32,000 nucleotides of DNA from Candidatus Thorarchaeota archaeon (GTDB lineage: Archaea > Asgardarchaeota > Heimdallarchaeia > Hodarchaeales > Hodarchaeaceae): the NCBI GenBank assembly GCA_048882505.1, contig JBHLRO010000005.1, forward strand, positions 197,204-229,203, read 5' to 3'. Numbering within the stretch: position 1 is the first letter of the stretch; every line of letters begins with the position of its first letter. Positions 18,185-31,381 of this stretch are shown in pieces. The notes beneath the pieces were generated by a model. That model was not told where the DNA came from. It saw only the letters and a list, made by a program, of their open reading frames with translations, and did no database searches. The position numbers and the translations under genes are program-made.

Positions 18185-19078
18185 TTAGTAAAATTGCTTC
18201 AAGATCTCTTTTTGATTCCTCAAATTCCTCTTTTGAGATACAAGTGGGCCCCGACGTAAAGTTGGCTCGAAATCCTCGTAAAGCGGACGATCCTCCTGAT
18301 AAAATAATCCGATGGCAATTCTTTCCTCCCACGGCTCTCTTGCATGTGCCATGGCGGCTCCGAAGTCATTTGTATCGTACTCGTTATCCTCGATTTTAAA
18401 GACCCGTTCTTTGAAGAAATCGTATGTCGCCATCTTTTGAAAAGTTACACAAGGAGAGATTACATCGATGTATGAGAATCCTCGATGTTTAATCCCCTCT
18501 GCAACTAGGTTGGCCAGATGCGTTCTTTCACCAGAAAAGCCTCGTGCAACAAAACTGGCCCCCGCCGCGAGGGCTACCGCAATGGGATTTAATGGGAGTT
18601 CATGGAGTGAATAATTTCCTGGAGTTGATTTGGTAACCAATCCCTCTCTTGAAGTGGGAGAAGCTTGTCCCGTGGTCAACCCATAGATTTCATTATTCAT
18701 TACGATATAAGTTATATTAACGTTTCTTCTGCATGCATGAACAAAATGTCCCGCTCCTATACCGTAACCATCCCCATCTCCTCCAGCTACAATTGTTGTA
18801 AGTTCGTGATTTGCTAATTGGATTCCCATGCCCACGGGAAGTGCACGACCATGAAGTGCGTGTACCCCGTAGCTCGAGAGAAAATGGGGAAAATTTGAAC
18901 TACATCCTATACCTGATACCACAACAATATTACGTGGGGGAATTTGGAGCTCCCTCATGGCTTCAAGTGTCCCTCTTAAAACACCAAAATCACCACAACC
19001 AGGACACCAAGTGGGTTTAACATCCGATTGAAAGTCCTTTAAATCGAGATGGCTTTCTACTACTTCTACACTCATCAT
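18185..19078 (-). CDS. korB: 2-oxoacid:ferredoxin oxidoreductase beta subunit
   Basis: WCPGCGDFG, SGIGCSS, HGRALP, GDGDG, NNEIYGLTTGQASPT, SPCVTF. Substrate specificity not determinable. Confidence 0.95.
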   Translation of the reverse strand: MMSVEVVESHLDLKDFQSDVKPTWCPGCGDFGVLRGTLEAMRELQIPPRNIVVVSGIGCSSNFPHFLSSYGVHALHGRALPVGMGIQLANHELTTIVAGGDGDGYGIGAGHFVHACRRNVNITYIVMNNEIYGLTTGQASPTSREGLVTKSTPGNYSLHELPLNPIAVALAAGASFVARGFSGERTHLANLVAEGIKHRGFSYIDVISPCVTFQKMATYDFFKERVFKIEDNEYDTNDFGAAMAHAREPWEERIAIGLFYQEDRPLYEDFEPTLRRGPLVSQKRNLRNQKEILKQFY

Positions 19079-20826
19079 TATTCGAGAACCTCCTGCTTAA
19101 CAAAATCAACTATCTCTTTTGGTGACAAATAATCTCCATCATACTTATTGTAACTGTAGTCAATTTTAATACTTGTTTCAGCTGAGATATGCCGCTTCAT
19201 CTGTCCACTATAATTTCCCTCAACTATAACAATTTTTTTAGCATTTTGAAGAAAATTGGCGAGCTTATCTTTGTTAAAAGGAACGATGCTTCTTATATGT
19301 AGGCTATTTACTCTGACGCCATTGGAATTTAGAATGTCGACTGCCTCTTGAATCGCTCCTGTAGATGAACCCCAACCGATGATCGTGATTTCCGAGTTCG
19401 GAGGGCCATAGGTCTCTGGGGGTCGCAATTCTCTACCGAGGAATTCCAGTTTTCTGCCCCGTTTCTCCATCATTTGTTTTCTGATGATGAATTGTTCCGG
19501 AAGACCAGCTCTAACATCGGAAATAAGGTCCCCTTTTTCATCATGCTCGTCGGATCCTGCGATAAATTCATATCCAGATTCTCCAGGGATTGATCTCGGT
19601 GAGACACCGTTTTCCGTGTCTGATTTATAACGAAGATAATCATTTTGCCCGTTTGGTGCCAAACGTTCATAAACTTCAGGTTCTAGATTCACTTCTTCAA
19701 TGGTTTCATAGTGTTCTGATAAATAGAGATCTGACATTACAATGATAGGTATTTGATACCTTTCTGCAAGATTTAATGCTTCGACAATTGTATCATAGGC
19801 ATCCGCAACATTTAATGGCGCGAAAATCGCCTTTGGGAAATCACCTTGAGATGCACCGAATACCTGATTTAGGTCCCCTTGTTCTGTCTTGGTTGGAAGT
19901 CCCGTTGAAGGGCCACCCCTCATACTGGTAACAACAACCAGCGGAGTTTCAATCATCCCGGCAAAACCGATGGCCTCTGTCATAAGAGCAAAACCTCCTC
20001 CTGAAGTTCCACACATTGCTTTAACACCCGCAAAAGACGCGCCTATTGTAGAATTAACTACTCCCAATTCGTCTTCCACTTGCTTTACCACCATTCTATA
20101 TTCGTTTGCGTGTGCTGCCAGAAAATGTAAGATCGAAGTTGCAGGCGTCATTGGGTAAGCAGCATAATATTGTAATCCTGCTGCCATTGCTCCAAGCCCG
20201 ATTGCTTGATTTCCTGAAATGAACATGCGCGGAGATCCCCCAAATTGTACTGAGTGTTGAAACAATGGCAGTCCAGAACCTAATTGATAACCACGTTCAG
20301 CTGCGCCCAGGTTTATCTTGATAATCTCTTCCCCCTTTTTTTGGAATTGTTCCCTTAACATTTCGTTAAAATATCCTGATTCGATATTAAGTACCTTTAA
20401 TACAGCACCAATTGCCACAGTATTCTGTAAAATGGTCATTCTCCGACCAAATTCCTTGGCCGTTTCAATCAAGGGTAATGGACATAGATTGATATCCTTG
20501 GGGAGATCTTCTGCATTAGGTTTAACTTTTTTCTCATCATAAATCAATAAACCTCCTGGCTGCAATTCACGTCCATAGGTATTGGCCGCCAAGGTCGTTA
20601 GAGCTATTAAAAAATCAATGCCTTGACCTTGGCTTTTGATAGGTCGGTTAGAAGCCCTTATATTCCATCCGACAAGACCACCTCGGATCACTGATTGGTA
20701 GAAGTTTAGTCCGTGGACATAAAGGCCCAGTCTAGAACAGATTTTCCCAAAAGTTTCTCCTGCTGATGCCACTCCGTCTCCAGCAGCTCCACCAATTCGA
20801 ATGATGAATTCATTTTTACCTGACAT
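19078..20826 (-). CDS. korA: 2-oxoacid:ferredoxin oxidoreductase alpha subunit (gamma-alpha fusion)
   Basis: GGAAGDGV, YPMTPAT, QVEDE, TSGGGFALM, RGGPSTGLPTKTEQGD; stop overlaps the korB start. Confidence 0.95.
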   Translation of the reverse strand: MSGKNEFIIRIGGAAGDGVASAGETFGKICSRLGLYVHGLNFYQSVIRGGLVGWNIRASNRPIKSQGQGIDFLIALTTLAANTYGRELQPGGLLIYDEKKVKPNAEDLPKDINLCPLPLIETAKEFGRRMTILQNTVAIGAVLKVLNIESGYFNEMLREQFQKKGEEIIKINLGAAERGYQLGSGLPLFQHSVQFGGSPRMFISGNQAIGLGAMAAGLQYYAAYPMTPATSILHFLAAHANEYRMVVKQVEDELGVVNSTIGASFAGVKAMCGTSGGGFALMTEAIGFAGMIETPLVVVTSMRGGPSTGLPTKTEQGDLNQVFGASQGDFPKAIFAPLNVADAYDTIVEALNLAERYQIPIIVMSDLYLSEHYETIEEVNLEPEVYERLAPNGQNDYLRYKSDTENGVSPRSIPGESGYEFIAGSDEHDEKGDLISDVRAGLPEQFIIRKQMMEKRGRKLEFLGRELRPPETYGPPNSEITIIGWGSSTGAIQEAVDILNSNGVRVNSLHIRSIVPFNKDKLANFLQNAKKIVIVEGNYSGQMKRHISAETSIKIDYSYNKYDGDYLSPKEIVDFVKQEVLE

Positions 20827-20916
20827 TATTTCAACCCTATAATATTTGAATGTTATTTCTTCGTTTTGCTAGTAATTGTCCATATGCCCATTTTTGAGGC
20901 GGCCGCGATCATTTTT

Positions 20917-21285
20917 TTATGATTTCGAGATCCATTCGGCTTCTGGCGTGATATTCCGTTCTGGAGTTTTTCCTGGGCCGTCCCAACCTTTCTCGCTTAC
21001 AAAGTATTTAGGACTGACTTCCATATCCTGCTCACACAAAATCTGACATGACAGCCTGACCTGGCCTTTAAGTCCACGATCCTCTAGTCTCTCAAGTTCA
21101 GCCTTTGTCATTTTCCCTGGCTCGCCAGAATGAATTTCTACCCGGCAAGTGGTGCAACGAGCGAATCCACCACACCTATGTCCTATATCGATACCTGCAC
21201 GTTCAACTGCCAAAACCAATCTTTCATTTGGCGCTGCTTCTATCCTTTTTTTCGTTCCGTGCTTAAAGATAGTTATTGTGGGCAT
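20917..21285 (-). CDS. [2Fe-2S] ferredoxin
   Basis: HRCGGFARCTTCRV...RLSCQ (C-x5-C-x2-C...C). Confidence 0.9.
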   Translation of the reverse strand: MPTITIFKHGTKKRIEAAPNERLVLAVERAGIDIGHRCGGFARCTTCRVEIHSGEPGKMTKAELERLEDRGLKGQVRLSCQILCEQDMEVSPKYFVSEKGWDGPGKTPERNITPEAEWISKS

Positions 21286-21357
21286 TTTATTTCATGAAAT
21301 GGTGAATAGTCCGATAATAAGTAGATGTTTCTCTGAAAATAGTATCGAATAACAAGA

Positions 21358-21828
21358 TCAACTCGGTGCCCTAAAAGAAACTGTTTCCGTTACTTTGCCA
21401 TAAATTCCTACAGTTGTGAATTTTGATGGAGTAATCTCGATTAAAACAGATTCTTTGATCTCATCCCGTACAAGACGGCGAATTAACCTTCTAGAGAACC
21501 AGCTGTGAAGTGAAGCAAATTCATTAACCTTTTCCACGCTTAAAGTACAAATCTTTGCCGTTCCTTTTATATAAATGACATGGGGAATCCTAAAGAGACC
21601 TGTTTTATCTGCTATCAGCCAGACGTTGGGATTGTTTTGGATATTTTGTACCTTTTTCCTTTTTTTATGCGATATAATTAATATTTTCCAATCTTCTGTT
21701 ATCCTCGGTAGAACAATGGTTGTTTGAGGTATATCTTTCCAGCTCGTGGTCAAAGAATAGAAATAAACGGACTTCAATATCTTTTTGATCCGATCCTTTT
21801 GCTTGGGTGACATTTCTTGCACAAACAA
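21358..21828 (-). CDS. Pyridoxamine 5'-phosphate oxidase-like (FMN/F420-binding split barrel) protein
   Basis: K-V-x-N-I-x-x-NP-x-V motif, KG-x-A, C-terminal VLIEITP-x-K. Confidence 0.7.
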   Translation of the reverse strand: MFVQEMSPKQKDRIKKILKSVYFYSLTTSWKDIPQTTIVLPRITEDWKILIISHKKRKKVQNIQNNPNVWLIADKTGLFRIPHVIYIKGTAKICTLSVEKVNEFASLHSWFSRRLIRRLVRDEIKESVLIEITPSKFTTVGIYGKVTETVSFRAPS

Positions 21829-23056: not shown

Positions 23057-23695
23057 ATGAGGTTAGTTAAATTGCGAAAAAGGTATAATATCTTAACTAT
23101 GGGTATATTTCTATTCTTAATTACTTTAATCGTTTTTTCGCCGTTCACAATTGTTGGTGTGAACGAGAATACCTCCATACAAATTCGTACCTTACCTGAA
23201 AATCAGTTCAGTGTTACCCAATTAAGCTTACTCCCTGATACTACATATACTATCTATTTTTGGAACCCCGTTGAAAATCACTTTCATAACCTGATAATAG
23301 CCACTGACGGAAGAACGATTACCCCCGAAATCGCTGTTCTAGGTCCCATCGGTACTGATCTTGTCATTGGTAAAACTGATTTATCGATCGTAACCGACGA
23401 GGACTTTGGAGGGCCAGATAAGGGTATTGTCGGCTCTGTAACATGGACTACGCCCAAAGACAGCATGTACGTGAGTTTCTTCTGCTCCTGTCCCGGACAC
23501 TTCGGGGCCGGAATGAAAGGTTATTTTACAGTTGGCAATCCAGTCGGCCCCCCTCCCTTTAAAGAGACGGCGACCGTAAGTGAACTTATTTTCGCCTTAA
23601 CTTCCGTTCTGGTAGCCGTTTTGGCTTTACCAGTGATTGCATTAGCTATTGCTCTTCCACTGGATCGTAAATTCAAGCCTATTACGCCAGCGTAA
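23057..23695 (+). CDS. Membrane-anchored cupredoxin (type-1 blue copper; plastocyanin/auracyanin-like)
   Basis: HNL...FFCSCPGHFGAGMKG gives the H...C-x4-H-x4-M ligand set; N-terminal signal/TM and C-terminal TM helix. Confidence 0.88.
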   Translation: MRLVKLRKRYNILTMGIFLFLITLIVFSPFTIVGVNENTSIQIRTLPENQFSVTQLSLLPDTTYTIYFWNPVENHFHNLIIATDGRTITPEIAVLGPIGTDLVIGKTDLSIVTDEDFGGPDKGIVGSVTWTTPKDSMYVSFFCSCPGHFGAGMKGYFTVGNPVGPPPFKETATVSELIFALTSVLVAVLALPVIALAIALPLDRKFKPITPA

Positions 23696-23830: not shown

Positions 23831-24154
23831 TTAATCAACCATTTCACCTTCGAGATCATACCCTGCTTTTTGCCACGCCTCCAAACCTCCCGCAAATCGA
23901 CGTAAATTTTTGAATCCTGCTTTTTCCAATGAGATGTATGCCACTTGACTTGCCGAACACTCTGGGTTTGAACAATAAACCACGATTTCGTCATCTTTGC
24001 TAAGATATTGGGGAGCCTCTTCTGGATTGTGCACGGAAATAGAACCAGGGATGTGCATTGCTCTAAAATACCAATCTCCCAGAGTAAAAACTAGTTTAAA
24101 ACTATCTCCGTTATCCAATTTTTCCTTTAGTTCATTAGTAGAAATCGTTTTCAT
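23831..24154 (-). CDS. Single-domain rhodanese-like sulfurtransferase
   Basis: HIPGS, IVVYCSNPECSAS, L-x-x-AGF-x-N...GGLEAW; no signal peptide. Confidence 0.92.
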   Translation of the reverse strand: MKTISTNELKEKLDNGDSFKLVFTLGDWYFRAMHIPGSISVHNPEEAPQYLSKDDEIVVYCSNPECSASQVAYISLEKAGFKNLRRFAGGLEAWQKAGYDLEGEMVD

Positions 24155-24307
24155 GTTTATTTCCTCTTCTTAACAGTATCACAAGATTCCCCTTTAAGTT
24201 TGGGCAGTTTTAACTAACTTTTTCTATCTAACTATGGATTCCCGCCATACGTGAGAGGAATTCTGGACGAAGGTAGGCTTCTATGTACCTTAAAAATCTG
24301 ACTTTAT

Positions 24308-24478
24308 CTATTCTCGTAGTTCGGTTACAGAGTACCAATAGGGGACAGGGCCACGACCTGAATTCCAAAAGAATTGCTTTTTTGGCTCCCAACAAGCAAT
24401 GTATGTTTCTTGGGGGTTTATAGATTCAGGCATTGAGAAAGAGTATTCTTCTAGCGCTTTTATTAGCTGATAAGCCAT
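24308..24478 (-). CDS. Possible small protein or gene remnant (56 aa)
   Basis: MAYQLIKALEEYSFSMPESINPQETYIACWEPKKQFFWNSGRGPVPYWYSVTELRE*; the same frame stays open for about 43 codons upstream beyond one TAA. Confidence 0.25.
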   Translation of the reverse strand: MAYQLIKALEEYSFSMPESINPQETYIACWEPKKQFFWNSGRGPVPYWYSVTELRE

Positions 24479-24744
24479 CTTTTAGATTGTGGAATGTTTC
24501 CTGCTAATGTTGAAATCGAACGTTTTTTCACATTCTTCCATATCATCACTGAAGATCAAGCAATAAGCCTCCCGCGTTGTATTACGAAAGTCAATTCGTA
24601 CAACTGTGAATACTTAATATATAAACCATTGTGAATGCGTAAAACGTAACTTTCCAAGGAAACTCTTATAAAAATCCAGAGAATACCGAATTTTAGTTAT
24701 TACAATGAAAACACTGTATTCCTCTGTAAGCTGGTTTAAAGTTC

Positions 24745-26460
24745 ATGCGTCAACCTAATTTACAACTTAAACGGAAAAGTAACTTTTTCCTGTTTTTTAT
24801 TTTTTTACTTTTAATAGTTGGAAAACCCGATTCTGCGGTACTAGCATATCCTAACCATGGTTTTCCTCCTTTATCAGGGTATGTTTCAGTTCCATACGTT
24901 GCTTCAAGCGAGGTTGTAATTGATGGAACTGTTATGAGCAACGAATACCCAGTACGACTTGAGGATTCGCACGAGCTTACAGGAATTGTTGTTTCTCTTA
25001 GTCACAACGGCTCAGATTTATTTGTTGCTTTGGAAAGCCCATCAAAAGGATGGGTCGGCATAGGATTTGGGCCCAAGGGGGTTCCGATGGACGGATCCAA
25101 CATCATCATGGGATACGTAGCAGATAATGGAACATTTGTTATCGAGGATCATTACGGGCTGGGCATACAGCACTTTTCTGATATTGATGCTGGAGGAACC
25201 GATAACATTGGGGCAGCGGCAGGCACGGAGAATGAGACGTTTACCGTTATCGAATTCATCTTTCCCATCTCATCAGGGGATAGTTATGATCATTCTTGGG
25301 TTTTGGGTCAGGAAAACGGTTTTTTCCTCGCAAACCATCCAACAGCTGACAATATGGCCAGCTATCATCCAGAACATTCCAATCTCATTACGATTAAACT
25401 TGAAACTACTTCTGTTATTATGCCATTGGTCACCAATCCGATTGTTTCTGTTGATGGCTTGATCGGCCAAAATGAATACGAATCATCTGTTTTGGATCCG
25501 TTAACTGAGATTACTGTCTACTTAGAACACAATAACACTGATATGTTTATTGGGCTGATTTCACCTCCAGGCCATAGTGGTTGGCTAGGTATTGGTTTCG
25601 GACCCCAGAATGCTCATAAAAATGGATCTAATATAATTATTGGTTTTGTCAACGCTTCAGGGGTTCATGTAAGTGACGATTACGGAGAACCAGGTGATCA
25701 TCATCCTGATACGTCTGCCAATGGAACCTTTGATATAAAGGCTAGTGCCGGAACCGAGAATTCAAGTCATACCATAATCGAATTTATTTTTCCATTAAAT
25801 TCCTCAGATATCCCATTGGACCATGCCTATGCCGTCAATTCAACGTATGGGTTTTTCGTTTCTCACAACCGAACGGCCGATGACTTTGTCAGCATGCACC
25901 CAGAACATTCTATTACATACGACCTTTATGTATCTCCGTTTGAAACTTTAGAAATAAGCACAATGGTTTCAGCCGCAGATACGGACGGAACTCCGATCAC
26001 AACTGGAGGGGAGCTTCCTCAAGGAACTAGAATTATCCTTACTGCGAATTTCAATGTTCTAGAGGGTGGTGATCCGGATCTCATGGATGGGAGACGTGTC
26101 AATCTATACCTGAACTTTTCTTTCGGAAGAATGTTATTAGCATCAAACATTACCAATACAGACAGTAAGGCCATATTTGTTTATGATTTAGAAAGAGTAG
26201 CAGGTCTTATCAATTTCATAGTAGAATTTCCAGGAGCCACGGTTGGAACCAAAATACTTGCGCAAGACGAAGGATACTTCACCATTAATTTGATTCCTGA
26301 AGAACATATCGAGGAGTTTATTTGGTTTGATGATCCAAATATTTTTGGTGCTGTATCGGCTGGCGCATTGTTTCTTGTTGTTTGTGTTTTTTGCATTTAT
26401 GGATATGTGGTCTATAACGCAGTACGAATAAGATCTGATAAAAAGGCATACGAAACATAA
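24745..26460 (+). CDS. Secreted, C-terminally membrane-anchored protein with two DOMON domains plus an Ig-like stalk
   Basis: Signal peptide; two repeats offset by 177 aa: GWVGIGFGP-x4-MDGSNIIMG...YHPEH and GWLGIGFGP-x4-KNGSNIIIG...MHPEH; 13 N-x-S/T sequons; TM at about aa 534-558. Confidence 0.87.
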   Translation: MRQPNLQLKRKSNFFLFFIFLLLIVGKPDSAVLAYPNHGFPPLSGYVSVPYVASSEVVIDGTVMSNEYPVRLEDSHELTGIVVSLSHNGSDLFVALESPSKGWVGIGFGPKGVPMDGSNIIMGYVADNGTFVIEDHYGLGIQHFSDIDAGGTDNIGAAAGTENETFTVIEFIFPISSGDSYDHSWVLGQENGFFLANHPTADNMASYHPEHSNLITIKLETTSVIMPLVTNPIVSVDGLIGQNEYESSVLDPLTEITVYLEHNNTDMFIGLISPPGHSGWLGIGFGPQNAHKNGSNIIIGFVNASGVHVSDDYGEPGDHHPDTSANGTFDIKASAGTENSSHTIIEFIFPLNSSDIPLDHAYAVNSTYGFFVSHNRTADDFVSMHPEHSITYDLYVSPFETLEISTMVSAADTDGTPITTGGELPQGTRIILTANFNVLEGGDPDLMDGRRVNLYLNFSFGRMLLASNITNTDSKAIFVYDLERVAGLINFIVEFPGATVGTKILAQDEGYFTINLIPEEHIEEFIWFDDPNIFGAVSAGALFLVVCVFCIYGYVVYNAVRIRSDKKAYET

Positions 26461-26487
26461 TAGGATATATTGGAGGAAATAGGATTC

Positions 26488-27336
26488 ATGCCAACGTCAC
26501 GAAGAAATTTCTTGAAACTATTAGGCGCAATAGGAGCAGTAGGAGGAACCCTTGCAATTACATCCAAATTAAATTTCAATCAACAATCCCTAGGACGTCA
26601 AAACTCTGCCACAGAAGAGGAATTTCCTCCCCAGTGGGTTATGATGATTGATTTGGAAAAATGTGACGGGTGTCAAGATAAGGATATTAGCTCTTGCTTG
26701 GAAGCTTGCGCAATTATGCATTATGTTCCTAAACGATTTAAGGAATCAGGCGAACCAACTGAACCATCGGAGCCGCAGGCTTGGATTGAATTATATGAAA
26801 AAGAAGACAACAGTTTGGCAGGGAAATACTTCTTACCACGGCCTTGTATGCATTGTGAAAGCCCCCCTTGCCTGTGGGTTTGCCCAACAGGTGCAACTTT
26901 CAGGAACGATGAAGGATTAGTATTAATAGATCACCGCATATGTATTGGTTGCCGAATGTGCATCGCGGCCTGTCCCTATAATGCACGCTACTTTAATTGG
27001 GGCGAACCTGAACCGTGGTTCGGCACTAGGGAGGAGGAAATTGAATATGCGAAGCAATTAGGGGCATATTCCGCAGAATATCCCCTGCCTCACCAAAGAG
27101 GAGTTGTTGAGAAGTGTGATTTTTGTTCCCATTCTGCCAAAAATGGCCAGCTCCCAGCTTGTGTGGGAGCATGCCCAGGCGGAGCGCTATATTTCGGGAA
27201 TCTAAACCATGACTTAGTGACAAATGGAACCTTCCAAACAGTTCCTCTTTCAGATACTGTCAAAGAAAGAATGGGGTATCGCCTACAAGAGGAATTGGGT
27301 ACAAAACCTCGAATATTTTACTTACCTAAGCGCTGA
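26488..27336 (+). CDS. Tat-exported 4x[4Fe-4S] electron-transfer subunit (NrfC/DsrO/QrcC/ActB2-like)
   Basis: SRRNFLK twin-arginine signal from ATG 26488; 16 Cys in four groups (CDGC..C..C, CMHC..C..CP, CIGCRMC..CPY, CDFC..C..CP). Confidence 0.93.
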   Translation: MPTSRRNFLKLLGAIGAVGGTLAITSKLNFNQQSLGRQNSATEEEFPPQWVMMIDLEKCDGCQDKDISSCLEACAIMHYVPKRFKESGEPTEPSEPQAWIELYEKEDNSLAGKYFLPRPCMHCESPPCLWVCPTGATFRNDEGLVLIDHRICIGCRMCIAACPYNARYFNWGEPEPWFGTREEEIEYAKQLGAYSAEYPLPHQRGVVEKCDFCSHSAKNGQLPACVGACPGGALYFGNLNHDLVTNGTFQTVPLSDTVKERMGYRLQEELGTKPRIFYLPKR

Positions 27337-27351
27337 AAGAGGGAACTGTAT

Positions 27352-28842
27352 ATGCAATCAGAAAGTTCAAACGCATTTCTTGAGGAACACAAGAGCGCAC
27401 AAATCTTATTACACCCCGTAATGAAAACGGGAAAAACCTACTTCGTTGCTCTCCTGTTAATGGTTCTTGTGTTAATGTTCGCTGCTTATGCTTATCTAAA
27501 TCAGTTTGTCAACGGTTTGATCGTAACTGGTTTGCGAGACAAGGTTTCGTGGGGAGTTTACATAACCAATTTCGTTTTCTTTATTGGGATCTCGCATGCA
27601 GGAACATTCATATCAGCTGTTCTTCGTGTAACTGATGCTCAGTGGAGACATCCGATAACCCGAATTGGCGAACTATTGACAGCATTTGGGCTGTTCATTG
27701 GTGCAGCCATGGTTTTGATTGATATAGGGCGTATTGACAGAATCTTATATGTTCTTACGATTGGCAAGTTCAATTCACCTATTCTCTGGGACTTTTTAGC
27801 CCTCTCAATGTATATAGTTGGTAGCCTGGTTTACCTTTACATAGCACTTATTCCTGATTTTGCCTTGATGCGAGATCATCTCAGCACAGATGCTTTCTGG
27901 CTCAAACGATGGATGTGGAGATTCCTGGCCGTTGGTTGGCAAGGTACAGAGGCTCAACATAAGCGGTTAAATCGAGGAATCGGATTCATGGCATGGATTC
28001 TCATTCCAGTAATGATAACAGTTCATACCGTTGTTTCTTACACCGTTGGAGGAGTTATGCTACGTCCAGGTTGGCGTAGTACAATCTTTGGACCTTATTT
28101 CGTTATTGGGGCATTATATTCTGGAACTGCAGCTTTGATCACGGCGATGTTCGTCATAAGGGTTATCTACCCCGAATACAAGAAGATATTGACAGAACGA
28201 CACTTCCGAAATATGGGCGTAATAATGGTTGTTTTAAGCCTTGGATATGCCTATTTCACGTTTTCTGAGTACATTGGCGCTCTCTATTCAACGCCAACTG
28301 AAGAAGCAGAGCTCCTTAACGCTCTCTTCTATGGCGACTATGCGTTATTATTCTGGTTCTCGATCGTGGGCGGAATAGTAATCCCAGGAAACATTTTCTT
28401 CTTTACGAGGGCCCGTAGCATTACCGGAATTTTCATTGCCTCGATCCTTGTCAATATAGGGATGTGGATAAAGCGGTTCGTGATTATCGTTCCAGCTATG
28501 GCGCGACCTTGGATAGCAGGACCTTGGGGGACTTATATCCCCACTTGGGTTGAGGCTGCCATCACTTTAGGTGCATTTACCGCATTGGTATTTGGAATTG
28601 CAATTGCCCTGAAGTTCTTTCCCATTGCGCCATTATGGGAGATTCTCGAAGATGAGAAAAATCGTAAATTGTGGAAAGAGGCAGATCTGAAGTATCCCAC
28701 ATCATTTGCTGATCAAACTTTTCCTCTTTCAGAGGTTCAGAAACAAGAAGAAGAAAATATTGCCAGTGAACTGATTCTAGGCAAGAAAGAAAAAATAAAG
28801 GACGAAAGGCCGCCAGAATTCAGTTTCGAGGACCGTGACTAA
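27352..28842 (+). CDS. NrfD/PsrC-family quinone-interacting membrane subunit, ActC/QrcD-like (10 TM)
   Basis: WGVYITNFVFFIGISHAGTFISA, WR-x-PI-x-R, DIGR, SPILWD, TVHTVVS, GW-x-STIFGPYFV-x-GA-x-YSG, KRFVIIVP. Confidence 0.92.
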   Translation: MQSESSNAFLEEHKSAQILLHPVMKTGKTYFVALLLMVLVLMFAAYAYLNQFVNGLIVTGLRDKVSWGVYITNFVFFIGISHAGTFISAVLRVTDAQWRHPITRIGELLTAFGLFIGAAMVLIDIGRIDRILYVLTIGKFNSPILWDFLALSMYIVGSLVYLYIALIPDFALMRDHLSTDAFWLKRWMWRFLAVGWQGTEAQHKRLNRGIGFMAWILIPVMITVHTVVSYTVGGVMLRPGWRSTIFGPYFVIGALYSGTAALITAMFVIRVIYPEYKKILTERHFRNMGVIMVVLSLGYAYFTFSEYIGALYSTPTEEAELLNALFYGDYALLFWFSIVGGIVIPGNIFFFTRARSITGIFIASILVNIGMWIKRFVIIVPAMARPWIAGPWGTYIPTWVEAAITLGAFTALVFGIAIALKFFPIAPLWEILEDEKNRKLWKEADLKYPTSFADQTFPLSEVQKQEEENIASELILGKKEKIKDERPPEFSFEDRD

Positions 28843-28904
28843 ATAACTGGTTTACCAAAAGTTCCCAGACTTTTTCAAATCTCATCTTGAATTTAGGTAC
28901 ATAA

Positions 28905-30602
28905 ATGAAAAACAGATATACCAAGTTTTTTGGTGTAACTTTCTCTGTCCTGATCGCCAGTACTTCAATGGCCATGCAATTAAGGGTGTCCACCAATGTT
29001 CCCCACTATATTGTGAATATAGCCCCACAGGAACTTGAACAGATAGCTAATGAAATAGCTAATGGAATACTTAGGGAAGCCATTGAGGATGACAATTTTG
29101 CGAAATGGCCCAGAATCACTGATGGCCCTCCGCCAGGATGGCTGGGATCTTGGAATAATTTCTATTATGGATACTGGTGGGGTACCGCAGGAGTAGCAGA
29201 CACCCTGATCACTCTATTTGATGCGACACAGAATCAGACCTATCTCAATTATGCTGAAAAGGCCGGTAACTACCTTATGCAAAATGCTCAGGACCACCCT
29301 GATGGTGGAATTTACTGGTATGGTGCTGAGGATTATAATACAACATATATAGGGATGAAATACGGAAATGCGGGGATTGCTCTTTTCTTCCTAGACCTTT
29401 TAAAATCTACAAACAATCAAACTTATTACGAACCATTGGAAAACTCTCTTTTAACGCTAGAGGCAGTAGCACACAATTCCTCGGAAAATGATACCTTCTG
29501 GAGTTATACCCTTGGTGGTTCCGAAGGCGTTACTGATATTACATATGGAGTAGCAGGAATAGCCAACGTATTCCTAGAGGCCGGCGTCTCTCTAAATAAC
29601 ACTCATTGGATAGATATCGCAATTAGTTCAGGGGAATGGTTAACGAAGCTTGCCAGCAAAATCCACACTGACGGACAACAAGAATGGAGCATACCATGGT
29701 CAGATTTCGCTCCATTTAACACCTCCTTTTTCACGGGGTACGGAGGAGGAAACGCAGGTATTGGTTCGTTCCTATTATCTCTTTATAGTTCAACAAATGA
29801 TTCGCAGTGGCTAGATGCAGCGATCTTCATTGGAAATTGGTTACTTTCAAAACGAACTAACGGAACCTGGCTGAATGGTGGACCAACCTATATTACGGAG
29901 TTAGATCCCAATTCAACCAGACATCATACAATTGCTGGTATAGATAGTGGAGTTGCAGGAATAGGTCAATTTTTATTGGATTTATATCTCAACACAGCTA
30001 ATATGAGGTATGCAGAAGGTGTATTTGACGCAGCAAGTTGGTTAATAGGCCATGCCAACAAATCGGATCAAGGTTTGAAATGGGCGAAAACTACAGCTGA
30101 ACCAGATTCCAATGCCTATTTCACGGGATATTCCTCGGGCGCTGCTGGAATTGGAAGCTTTTTTGCCGAGATTTATTCCGCGTTCGGATGTGAGAAGTTC
30201 AAAACCGCCATGCTTGGCGCAGCAGAATGGTTGGCTTCGCTGCGAAAAGATGCTTACCTATTTCCAGCTGCAACGGGGACGACTCGTCACCCATTTCATC
30301 TTAAGCAATACGGACATCACCTTGGGTACCATAGCGGAGCGGCAGGTGTGGCCTTATATTTCTTGAAGGCGGCCGAGGGCCTACAATCAACTCCAAAATA
30401 TCCCGAAGTCATAAATTGTTCTTCTCTTCCCGAGTTTGGAGGATTACTACCCCAAACATATATTAATAATCAAAGTTCAGAAACAACAGTAAACGGGCAG
30501 ATTAATGACATTGAGCAGCTAATCGTCTCCTTACTTGGATTAGTTACGGTATCGATGGTATTGCTAATCCCAGTACTGGCATTACGAAGGAAAGACGCAT
30601 GA
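28905..30602 (+). CDS. Secreted, membrane-anchored LanC-like (alpha/alpha barrel) protein lacking Zn-binding and catalytic residues
   Basis: Seven G-x-AG repeats (GTAG, GNAG, GVAG, GNAG, GVAG, GAAG, GAAG); no GxAHG, WCxG or CHG; signal peptide, many sequons, C-terminal TM. Confidence 0.8.
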   Translation: MKNRYTKFFGVTFSVLIASTSMAMQLRVSTNVPHYIVNIAPQELEQIANEIANGILREAIEDDNFAKWPRITDGPPPGWLGSWNNFYYGYWWGTAGVADTLITLFDATQNQTYLNYAEKAGNYLMQNAQDHPDGGIYWYGAEDYNTTYIGMKYGNAGIALFFLDLLKSTNNQTYYEPLENSLLTLEAVAHNSSENDTFWSYTLGGSEGVTDITYGVAGIANVFLEAGVSLNNTHWIDIAISSGEWLTKLASKIHTDGQQEWSIPWSDFAPFNTSFFTGYGGGNAGIGSFLLSLYSSTNDSQWLDAAIFIGNWLLSKRTNGTWLNGGPTYITELDPNSTRHHTIAGIDSGVAGIGQFLLDLYLNTANMRYAEGVFDAASWLIGHANKSDQGLKWAKTTAEPDSNAYFTGYSSGAAGIGSFFAEIYSAFGCEKFKTAMLGAAEWLASLRKDAYLFPAATGTTRHPFHLKQYGHHLGYHSGAAGVALYFLKAAEGLQSTPKYPEVINCSSLPEFGGLLPQTYINNQSSETTVNGQINDIEQLIVSLLGLVTVSMVLLIPVLALRRKDA

Positions 30603-31381
30603 AAATACCAAAAAAAGTAAGAAAAAACCTATTTCCTCTTATTCTAGTTGTCCACATTTTGTTAGGATCGAAAATCCTTCTGAAATCTCTGAGCTCCGAT
30701 GTTCCAGTGATTGACGGAATATTCACAGAGGAAGAATGGGAAGGTGGCGATCGGAGGATTTTACAAATGGCAGATGGAACGACAATCGACGTGACGATTA
30801 AATTCAATCTAAGCCATATTTTTATTCTGATTCAGGTCAAGGATGATGATCCAAGGTTATTTGGAGAGAGCGGGGGACACGATTTCTTTGGAGTGGAATT
30901 TGATAATAATGGCGATAAGGTTCCAATGGGCCTTTCTTTTTCCCCCGACGATGCTCTATTTGTGTCTTATAATCAACCTGGAGGCCAAGATTTCTTTCTT
31001 CAAGGAATGGGAAATCCTGCCGTCCCGGATATCCTCGAAAATGGCACTAATGACGGAACAGGCAACATAGGACTTAGTTCCAATGGTGATGGGTTAATCA
31101 TGGAGAGTAGCAAACCTCTTGATTCAAACGATTCTCCCGGATATGATGCTTCCTTAAACCCAGGGGATAAATTTAATTTGATGTTTGCTTACTGGGATAA
31201 CCACTTTGGTCCGTTAATCCAGAGTACTTCTCATAGTGATTGGACTACTTACGAGGTGCCTGGCCAGCCTCAGCTGAATATATGGGAATCCGAATTGATA
31301 TTTGAAATCGTATCTGGCATTGGTATTCTTCTCCTAATGTTTTTAGCTAGATATGGATTAAAAAGACCTAAATCCATGTAG
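30599..31381 (+). CDS. Membrane-anchored DOMON-like (ethylbenzene dehydrogenase gamma / CBM9-like) protein
   Basis: PVIDG-x4-EW, GVEFDNNGD-x-VPM, E-x-x-KPL-x-x-x-D-x-x-x-x-D, AYWD...H; parallels the DOMON repeats of the 24745 gene; ATGA overlap with the LanC-like gene. Confidence 0.7.
   Translation: MKIPKKVRKNLFPLILVVHILLGSKILLKSLSSDVPVIDGIFTEEEWEGGDRRILQMADGTTIDVTIKFNLSHIFILIQVKDDDPRLFGESGGHDFFGVEFDNNGDKVPMGLSFSPDDALFVSYNQPGGQDFFLQGMGNPAVPDILENGTNDGTGNIGLSSNGDGLIMESSKPLDSNDSPGYDASLNPGDKFNLMFAYWDNHFGPLIQSTSHSDWTTYEVPGQPQLNIWESELIFEIVSGIGILLLMFLARYGLKRPKSM

Follow-up and report, generated by a model that had tools for sequence, protein, structure and literature searches.

Which redox partner does a NrfC/NrfD quinone module serve when the genes beside it encode no molybdopterin subunit and no cytochrome c? 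This question is raised by a gene cluster on the plus strand (24745-31381) of a 32,000-nucleotide stretch of DNA, called the window here (contig JBHLRO010000005.1, positions 197,204 to 229,203), from assembly GCA_048882505.1, a Hodarchaeales (Heimdallarchaeia) genome of 4.32 Mb in 83 contigs that is 94.5% complete. The cluster consists of five co-directional open reading frames (ORFs), which encode a DOMON protein, NrfC, NrfD, a LanC-fold protein and a DOMON/EbdC-fold protein. We consider it a probable minimal quinol:haem-b oxidoreductase of the alternative complex III (ACIII) type, which probably feeds a CuA oxidase; this reading predicts haem binding, complex formation and proton coupling as well as the direction of electron flow.

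Gene layout and the predicted redox core

The five genes and the region before them are as follows (aa, amino acids).

24745-26460, plus strand: P0001, double-DOMON protein of 571 aa (ORF and Pfam)
26470/26488-27336, plus strand: P0002, NrfC of 288 or 282 aa by choice of start (ORF and Pfam)
27352-28842, plus strand: P0003, NrfD of 496 aa (ORF and Pfam)
28905-30602, plus strand: P0004, LanC-fold protein of 565 aa (ORF and Pfam)
30599-31381, plus strand: P0005, DOMON/EbdC/CBM9-fold protein of 260 aa (4-bp overlap with the P0004 stop)
24155-24744, plus strand: presumed promoter region, 590 bp, intergenic and A/T-rich with TATA-like boxes (reading of the sequence; the cluster's only long gap)

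NrfC probably starts with the ATG at 26488: GGAGG lies 8 nt before it, and the 91%-identical orthologue of the sister species uses this start too. With this start the intergenic gaps are 27, 15, 62 and -4 bp, exactly as a preliminary description of this DNA had given them, while the alternative TTG at 26470 would make the first gap 9 bp. What that description had said about missing parts also held: motif reading found no CxxCH in any of the five proteins, and profile searches of the 94.5%-complete genome gave zero matches to PF00384, the molybdopterin family, and one NrfD match genome-wide. A molybdoenzyme partner and a full ACIII with a second NrfD were therefore both rejected. The same five-gene order was repeated in a genome of the same genus (G016, 81-93% identity) and in 70%-identical Hodarchaeales metagenome contigs, so the arrangement is not there by chance.

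P0003 is a member of the NrfD family (Pfam NrfD, 115 bits; cut-off 25.8) with ten hydrophobic segments and an acidic C-terminal tail (aa ~440-496). In a sequence search of the PDB at E<=1e-3 it matched four ActC chains only (6f0k_C at 3.4e-65, 6lod_C, 8k9e_C and 6btm_C), and these matches ran full length with E from 3.4e-65 to 4.8e-51; PsrC was not matched at this threshold. The ActC-like motifs that had been read from the letters were confirmed by alignment, in which GISHAGTFISA and GPYFVIGA lie on GIGHAGTLISA and PPYFVAGA of Rhodothermus ActC. The proposed quinol-site residues of the same ActC correspond to P0003 residues as listed here.

ActC His139: Asp124 in P0003
ActC Ser164: Ser142 in P0003
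ActC Asp169: Asp147 in P0003
ActC Asp253: Thr231 in P0003

Three of these four positions are compatible with a quinol site, and the Asp at the position of ActC His139 is the residue found in DsrP and QrcD. Among the NCBIfam models, the sole matches of P0003 were DsrP (104.5 bits; cut-off 350) and QrcD (40.6 bits; cut-off 570), both below the cut-off. ActC/ActF, DsrP and haloarchaeal DmsC are known to share one group of NrfD-like subunits (PMC8076601), and P0003 is predicted to be a quinol/quinone-interacting membrane subunit of this ActC/DsrP group.

P0002 matched Pfam Fer4_11 and related families plus TAT_signal, with a twin-arginine (Tat) motif SRRNFLK at 26497-26517. Its 282-288 aa hold Fe-S domains only, and it has exactly 16 Cys, which form four [4Fe-4S] cluster motifs and are all invariant or nearly so in 15 homologues. 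PDB matches were PsrB (2vpw_B, 1.5e-28), the C-terminal four-cluster part of ActB (6f0k_B, 1.1e-21), EbdB (2.5e-19) and NxrB (2.7e-11), and NCBIfam again gave scores below cut-off (DsrO 186 bits against 200, QrcC 136.8 against 400). The NrfC/NrfD pair belongs to the ActC/ActB2 (ACIII) lineage, in line with the ACIII/Qrc-like reading of the preliminary description.

P0001 is the unusual member of the cluster. It begins with a signal-like N-terminus, followed by two DOMON domains, an immunoglobulin (Ig)-like domain and a C-terminal transmembrane (TM) helix with a basic tail, and its parts are these.

24877-25407, plus strand: DOMON domain 1, aa ~45-221, candidate haem-b ligands Met115 and His208 (orthologue conservation and structural matches)
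25420-25932, plus strand: DOMON domain 2, aa ~226-396 (47% identical to domain 1)
25942-26301, plus strand: Ig-like stalk of Big_1/invasin type, aa ~400-519 (VIA-align Z ~10 to Ig, fn3 and invasin domains)
26335-26424, plus strand: C-terminal TM anchor, then basic tail (hydropathy 2.66 at aa 533-551; predicted helix 531-570)

The Pfam DOMON model matched in two stretches with 79 bits (cut-off 32.7), and the CDH-cyt model matched as well. The protein has 13 N-x-S/T N-glycosylation sequons, its hydrophobic segments lie at aa 8-26 and aa 533-551, and its orthologues are 44-81% identical. A PDB sequence search with P0001 and P0005 returned nothing usable, and a Foldseek search of the PDB with the whole 571-residue AlphaFold2 (AF2) model, whose overall pLDDT was 68.8, returned generic multi-Ig matches only, so the domains were separated by a VIA wide structure search. 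The closest structures to the model of domain 1 were then EbdC (2ivf_C; Z 14.3, root mean square deviation 3.0, 167 residues aligned) and NxrC (Z 13.5), followed at Z 12-13 by CBM9 (12.8), the dopamine beta-hydroxylase DOMON and the cytochrome domains of cellobiose dehydrogenase (CDH; 1d7c, 12.2) and pyranose dehydrogenase (PDH). EbdC (2ivf) and NxrC (7b04) are haem-b subunits docked on NrfC-like four-cluster Fe-S proteins.

Met115 and His208 are invariant across the eight double-DOMON orthologues, and their Met/His equivalents are present in 21 of 23 NrfCD-linked DOMON domains, a set drawn from all the lineages. One of the two exceptions is domain 2 in the genus of P0001, which has Lys292 at the Met position with His291 beside it (Lys is an axial ligand in EbdC); more distant orthologues have Met there, and His385 and His388 are invariant. 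The other is the divergent, poorly aligned DOMON of a Thermoplasmata locus (L056). The conserved Met and His columns probably coincide with the crystallographic haem-ligand positions, and the DOMON domains of P0001 are predicted haem-b sites, as far as can be judged from sequence.

The affinity to DsrP and QrcD allows the module to be read in reverse, with DOMON haems that are supplied from the outer face, for example by reduced humics, by Fe(II) or by the product of a periplasmic-type hydrogenase or formate dehydrogenase, and a NrfCD pair that reduces quinone and adds to the proton motive force. NrfD-type modules do run both ways, since Qrc reduces menaquinone and ACIII oxidises quinol (PMC8076601), and both Asp124 and the best partial NCBIfam matches (DsrO/DsrP and QrcC/QrcD) agree with such a Qrc-like role. 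QrcABCD and the DsrOP part of DsrMKJOP also share with the cluster the NrfC/NrfD architecture and the Asp at the protonatable quinone-site position. But all the NCBIfam scores are under the family (equivalog) cut-offs, QrcA and QrcB are absent from the cluster (DsrMKJ was not searched for), and the host is no sulfate reducer as far as the window shows. Further, the cluster holds no donor enzyme and the genome no molybdoenzyme match, a haem order of Lys/His or His/His and then Met/His would favour outward flow, and the oxidases that occur together with the module (see below) need a quinol-oxidising step. Reversal is thus improbable in our view.

A conserved three-gene unit with exchangeable redox heads

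Conserved DOMON-nrfC-nrfD synteny had been named as a check. DOMON-NrfC-NrfD is kept across archaeal classes, but the full set of five genes is not: the conserved unit has three genes and consists of NrfC, NrfD and a subunit of the type "redox head + Ig-like stalk + TM anchor", in both archaea and bacteria. DOMON-NrfC-NrfD, in either order, was found in Hodarchaeales (L011, L012, L030; L011 has a second set) and other Heimdallarchaeia (L013, L028, L029), and beyond them in Bathyarchaeia (L066), Thermoplasmata (L056), Thermofilaceae (L042) and an unclassified archaeon (L057).

When species-representative genomes were scanned, 80 loci had a NrfD 40-50% identical to P0003, and scripted annotation with Pfam sorted them into three layouts. 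The first belongs to a large bacterial clade and runs pentahaem gene, ~2.5-kb gene, NrfC, NrfD, tetrahaem gene. In the second, found in Chloroflexota (L017, L034, L036), the gene after NrfC-NrfD encodes a monohaem cytochrome c (CBB3 type) joined to Big_1 and a TM segment, and the third is the archaeal DOMON form. Nitrososphaerota showed a weak cupredoxin-like head match with Big_1 and TM in L032 and a weak cupredoxin-like match only in L033, and the third subunit of Bacteroidota has Big_1 alone. A hidden Markov model (HMM) of the Ig+TM part of P0001 found the gene that adjoins NrfCD in Thermoplasmata, Nitrososphaerota, Bacteroidota and Chloroflexota loci. These HMM matches, taken with the Pfam heads, indicate that the third subunit is homologous throughout and that the redox head alone has been swapped. 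The proposal that DOMON b-haems replace the cytochrome c wire gains support from the same comparison, because in the bacterial sister modules the same Ig-stalk/TM subunit bears a monohaem cytochrome c, so that DOMON stands in its place. The Nitrososphaerota version, from Nitrososphaerota/Nitrosopumilales MAGs (metagenome-assembled genomes), may be a haem-free copper form of the complex, in relatives of ammonia oxidisers.

In an unrooted maximum-likelihood tree of 99 NrfDs, P0003 fell in a four-member clade of Hodarchaeales-type DOMON loci (SH-aLRT 100), which lies within a 46-row 'mini' set and outside a 53-row multihaem clade (SH-aLRT 100). A family of three-subunit complexes thus emerges from the data, spread over archaea and bacteria and with exchange limited to the outward redox head, a case of modular bioenergetic evolution. 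Stand-alone 'nrfD/dmsB' pairs in MAGs should therefore not be read as polysulfide, dimethyl sulfoxide (DMSO) or nitrite reductases; a Thermoplasmata preprint noted nrfD-dmsB pairs and left them unexplained. The preliminary description had called the module undescribed, and this agrees with our literature search, which turned up no published DOMON-NrfCD module, and with the review of NrfD proteins, which lists no DOMON-NrfCD complex (PMC8076601).

The conserved linkage also bears on the alternative that P0001 and its relatives are haem-free surface glycoproteins (sugar-binding or S-layer-associated) next to an orphan NrfCD module, whose real partner would be another protein or would have been lost. 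DOMON and CBM9 folds bind sugars too (CBM9 at Z 12.8, and in the Foldseek matches), and the proteins are predicted to be of a heavily glycosylated surface type. However, the linkage is kept across at least four archaeal classes, Met and His are kept in nearly all the linked domains, DOMON takes the place of the cytochrome c domain on the Ig+TM subunit of bacteria, and the genes are tightly spaced at 27 (or 9), 15 and -4 bp. We give this alternative very little weight.

Two loci showed further arrangements. A Heimdallarchaeota MAG contig (L013, 1-17437) has at least three paralogous DOMON-NrfC-NrfD sets directly after narH/narJ/narI-like genes, and an EB_dh protein too; in one of its NrfCs the third cluster motif reads CIGTRQC, with Thr in place of its second Cys, a hint at a [3Fe-4S] cluster, and a second paralogue type has a NrfC with a C-terminal extension of ~100 residues. 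In another genome of the same order (G023; L031, 3332-5961), a distant NrfC-NrfD pair with 27% identity to P0003 is divergent beside a COX2-like gene, followed by a 1078-aa ORF, and makes another physical link between NrfCD modules and oxidase genes.

Respiratory context and proposed electron flow

Aerobic respiration has been attributed to Hodarchaeales and other Heimdallarchaeia in recent genome surveys, and many of these genomes have an oxidase and no recognisable complex III. The genome studied here has an A-type cox operon with COX2, COX1, COX3 and COX4 on contig C17, and its COX2 keeps the CuA motif C-x-E-x-C-x3-H-x2-M. NuoH is present. Profile searches of the genome gave zero PF00033 (bc1-type) cytochrome b matches and zero cytochrome bd matches, and the only Rieske protein found was one of 117 aa. 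The operon is followed by genes for two C-terminally anchored EB_dh-type proteins, on the minus strand and within 2-8 kb of cox (L022:14800-15702 and L022:17685-18623; the whole region is L022:9548-18623), and these are candidate haem-b carriers to the oxidase. DOMON proteins beside cox in Hodarchaeales have been reported before (bioRxiv 10.1101/2024.07.04.601786).

Across 83 Heimdallarchaeia species genomes, the NrfD clade (E<=1e-40) was found in 10, which were two of the 22 of the genus and eight of the 12 of family f5. COX1 was present in all 10, compared with 24 of the 83 overall. One more candidate component lies just before the cluster, with a minus-strand rhodanese gene (23831-24154) in between.

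23057-23695, plus strand: P0153, membrane-anchored type-1 cupredoxin, C-x-x-P-G-H-x4-M (motif; weak Pfam Copper-bind)

P0153 sits 1 kb upstream of the cluster; its orthologue adjoins the cluster in the sister species G016 (89% identical) and does not in L011. It is a candidate electron acceptor of the module, although its membership is uncertain.

From these data we propose the following route. The predicted topology puts all components other than NrfD on the outer face of the membrane. NrfD would take electrons from quinol and hand them by way of the four NrfC clusters to the stalk-proximal haem of DOMON-2, whose ligands in this genus would be Lys/His or His/His, with a probably lower potential as a result; from there they would go to the distal Met/His haem of DOMON-1 and on to an outer-face acceptor. 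The acceptor that we judge most likely is the aerobic chain, that is, the cupredoxin and/or the EB_dh-type proteins by cox and then CuA of the A-type oxidase. The aerobic chain is favoured because the genome has a CuA oxidase but no bc1 complex was found in it, because COX1 co-occurs in 10 of 10 genomes and because the bacterial sisters have an ordinary cytochrome c head. In that case the module would substitute for the complex III not found in the genome, and NrfD may couple electron transfer to proton translocation, like ActC.

Docking of the DOMON protein on the Fe-S subunit had been suggested as a check, and we predicted a three-chain complex from NrfC 50-288, NrfD 25-436 and P0001 232-571. 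The contacts were reproducible (runs agreed in >=92% of contacts, and partner pLDDT was >=72), but the score fell in a low band: it was 0.39 against 0.01 for the best control. Of 80 solved complexes 58 reach the score mark, as do 2 of 110 mismatched pairs; scores at or below 0.60 account for only seven of these 80 and for both mismatches.

Several points weigh against this reading. Sequence cannot give the direction of electron flow, and the three-chain prediction is weak. ActC Asp253 is not conserved in P0003 (Thr231). For quinone biosynthesis, MqnA/D were not matched in the genome, and a MenA-like match was below cut-off. The 10-of-10 co-occurrence spans approximately two lineages, so it represents few independent events. 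In the genus, COX1 is also present in seven other genomes that lack both the NrfD clade and cytochrome b, which means that the oxidase can have another feed and that the module is accessory and not the sole route. The cupredoxin neighbour is kept only within the genus, and P0005 (see below) could be a CBM9-like carbohydrate-binding module instead of a haem protein.

A multihaem cytochrome encoded elsewhere could be the real partner, so the whole genome was scanned for haem motifs. The scan found one, a membrane-anchored hexahaem protein of the c552/NrfA-like type with Cytochrom_C552 and Paired_CXXCH matches and a C-terminal anchor (contig C4:144488-150524 region; locus L112:3488-9525). Its gene stands in a row with a CcmF-like gene, a CcmE-like gene and the gene of a 788-aa GlcNAc-2-epimerase/GH76/GH88-like six-hairpin protein. 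In a classical Nrf wiring, NrfCD would be the quinol dehydrogenase for this cytochrome and the DOMON protein an NrfB-like intermediate. The presence of the hexahaem gene beside CcmF/CcmE-like genes is in line with this, and Thermoplasmata locus L015 has a similar pentahaem gene 2 kb from NrfCD. However, the hexahaem gene was found in 16 of 21 other genomes of the genus, mostly without the NrfD clade or NrfCD, and was not found in 12 of 12 f5 genomes, eight of which have DOMON-NrfCD. The relatives have a cytochrome b561-type gene within a few kb of it, and the copy of this genome is on another contig than the module. The gene therefore does not co-vary with the module, and the hexahaem cytochrome was rejected as an obligatory partner; we regard the Nrf wiring as very improbable.

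The ACIII-like assignment can be placed among known systems. Like ACIII (ActABCDEF; 6f0k, 6btm, 6lod, 8k9e), the module has an ActC-nearest NrfD with HAGT/PYFV motifs and aligned quinol-site residues, a Tat-exported P-side Fe-S subunit that matches the four-cluster C-terminal half of ActB, and the likely job of quinol oxidation feeding a CuA oxidase. Unlike ACIII, the five-gene cluster has neither the pentahaem ActA nor the monohaem ActE, and neither the molybdopterin-like ActB1 half nor the second NrfD (ActF). In their place the module has a third subunit whose Ig-like stalk bears two DOMON domains, and its NrfD has Asp for ActC His139 and Thr for Asp253. As four defining features of ACIII are missing, we place the module among the NrfCD-type quinone modules of ActC lineage and do not call it an ACIII member. 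Type II enzymes of the DMSO-reductase family (ethylbenzene dehydrogenase 2ivf, nitrite oxidoreductase Nxr 7b04; Ser/Clr/Ddh) also combine a haem-b domain of the DOMON superfamily with an NrfC-like four-cluster protein, but they have a Mo-bisPGD catalytic subunit and no NrfD, whereas the module has no Mo subunit and its Fe-S protein is tied to NrfD.

An outer-face haem-b protein in an archaeal respiratory complex is known from Sulfolobus SoxLN-CbsAB, to which the module can be likened by description. There the glycosylated, membrane-anchored mono-haem-b CbsA (cytochrome b558/566) is thought to be cytochrome c1-like, but it works with a Rieske/cytochrome b (bc-type) quinol oxidase and not with a NrfCD module; PF09459 EB_dh did match the Sulfolobus acidocaldarius control genome. 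Eukaryotic and fungal DOMON cytochromes (CDH/PDH, CYBDOM/AIR12) share the fold (Z 12 to 1d7c and 6jt6), the Met/His-type pattern and a role, predicted in P0001, as extracytoplasmic one-electron carriers, but they are fused to flavin or pyrroloquinoline quinone (PQQ) dehydrogenases or to cytochrome b561, while the DOMONs of P0001 sit on an Fe-S/NrfD quinol module. A second quinol-to-DOMON route, reminiscent of eukaryotic CYBDOM proteins, is possible in the same genome: at contig C4:3-4218 (L023), an ORF of >=657 aa that is cut by the contig end encodes a DOMON domain and then fibronectin-III repeats, and 1.4 kb separate it from a gene for prokaryotic cytochrome b561 (PF01292), which is present in 15 of 22 genomes of the genus.

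NrfCD with its own haem-b carrier thus offers a testable candidate for the absent complex III step, which it may fill. A wider version is possible, if on the doubtful side: DOMON haem-b proteins might be general outer-face carriers that replace cytochrome c in Heimdallarchaeia and several archaeal classes, and NrfCD-DOMON might be the complex III equivalent between quinone pool and CuA oxidase, perhaps with proton pumping as well. If this is true, there is an unrecognised family of respiratory complexes with DOMON, cytochrome c or cupredoxin heads, and an archaeal origin of the eukaryotic DOMON/cytochrome redox module becomes testable, as Heimdallarchaeia include the closest known relatives of eukaryotes.

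Accessory proteins and neighbouring genes

Among the loci examined, only those of Hodarchaeales type had the LanC-fold and third DOMON-like genes, and P0004 and P0005 are likely lineage-specific accessories on the outer face. P0004 matched Pfam LANC_like with 85 bits (cut-off 23.2) and gave weak GH88/GH127 matches. It has only two Cys in 565 aa and zero Cys-His pairs, so it has no Cys/Cys/His Zn-ligand site of the lanthionine cyclases. With hydrophobic anchors at aa 8-26 and 539-557, it is predicted to be an extracytoplasmic alpha/alpha toroid, and its gene is kept after NrfD in L011, L012 and L030. An atlas search with P0004 gave scores of at most 0.79, which are leads only. Both outer-face redox clusters of the genome include an alpha/alpha-toroid protein, and the two, P0004 and the 788-aa six-hairpin protein, have weak similarity (E 6e-5).

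P0005 has a signal peptide, a domain of DOMON/EbdC/CBM9 fold and a C-terminal TM segment. It had been described as a third DOMON-like protein, and this is supported at the level of profile and fold: it had zero Pfam or NCBIfam matches, but hhalign of its family (n=11; the members with a source name are all Hodarchaeales/Heimdallarchaeota) against the DOMON family of P0001 gave 96% probability at E 3e-9, with the nearly invariant Met110 aligned to Met115. Foldseek with its AF2 model (pLDDT 73.5) returned CBM9 (7nwo, 4.9e-6), EbdC (2ivf_C, 8.2e-6) and NxrC (7b04_C, 1.2e-4). From this model, P0005 is possibly a third haem-b site (Met110, His212) or else a carbohydrate/Ca-binding module.

Another reading is extracellular electron transfer, in which the same complex would oxidise quinol but its glycosylated, stalked DOMON haems would pass the electrons to an external acceptor such as Fe(III)/Mn(IV) minerals, humics or a syntrophic partner, or else to an outer-face enzyme. 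In the enzyme version, the LanC/GH-like toroid and the CBM9-like protein would be an oxidative pair acting on polysaccharide, as fungal CDH cytochrome domains feed lytic polysaccharide monooxygenases (LPMOs). The accessory proteins are indeed on the outer face, membrane-anchored and rich in sequons, the best Foldseek match of P0005 is CBM9, GH88/GH127 were matched weakly by P0004, CDH/PDH cytochrome domains resemble the DOMON fold at Z 12, and the source metagenomes are sediments. Eukaryotic DOMON-cytochrome proteins are ferric reductases or LPMO donors, which also counts for it. On the other side, two haems on a stalk of ~120 residues make a short wire compared with known multihaem conduits, the module is always found alongside haem-copper oxidases, the monohaem cytochrome c head of the bacterial sisters is typical of periplasmic carriers to oxidases, and a gene for an LPMO or a metal reductase was not seen in the window. 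The preliminary description had the module exchange electrons with an extracellular partner, and nothing in our data shows one. With haem-copper oxidases in 10 of 10 genomes, the genome's own CuA site and no bc1 complex found, an internal role like that of complex III is at least as likely, and we consider extracellular transfer unlikely.

Farther upstream, 3-6 kb from the cluster, the minus strand (18185-21828) encodes a two-subunit 2-oxoacid:ferredoxin oxidoreductase, a 2Fe-2S ferredoxin and a PNPOx-like flavoprotein, which could plausibly supply the respiratory chain with low-potential electrons.

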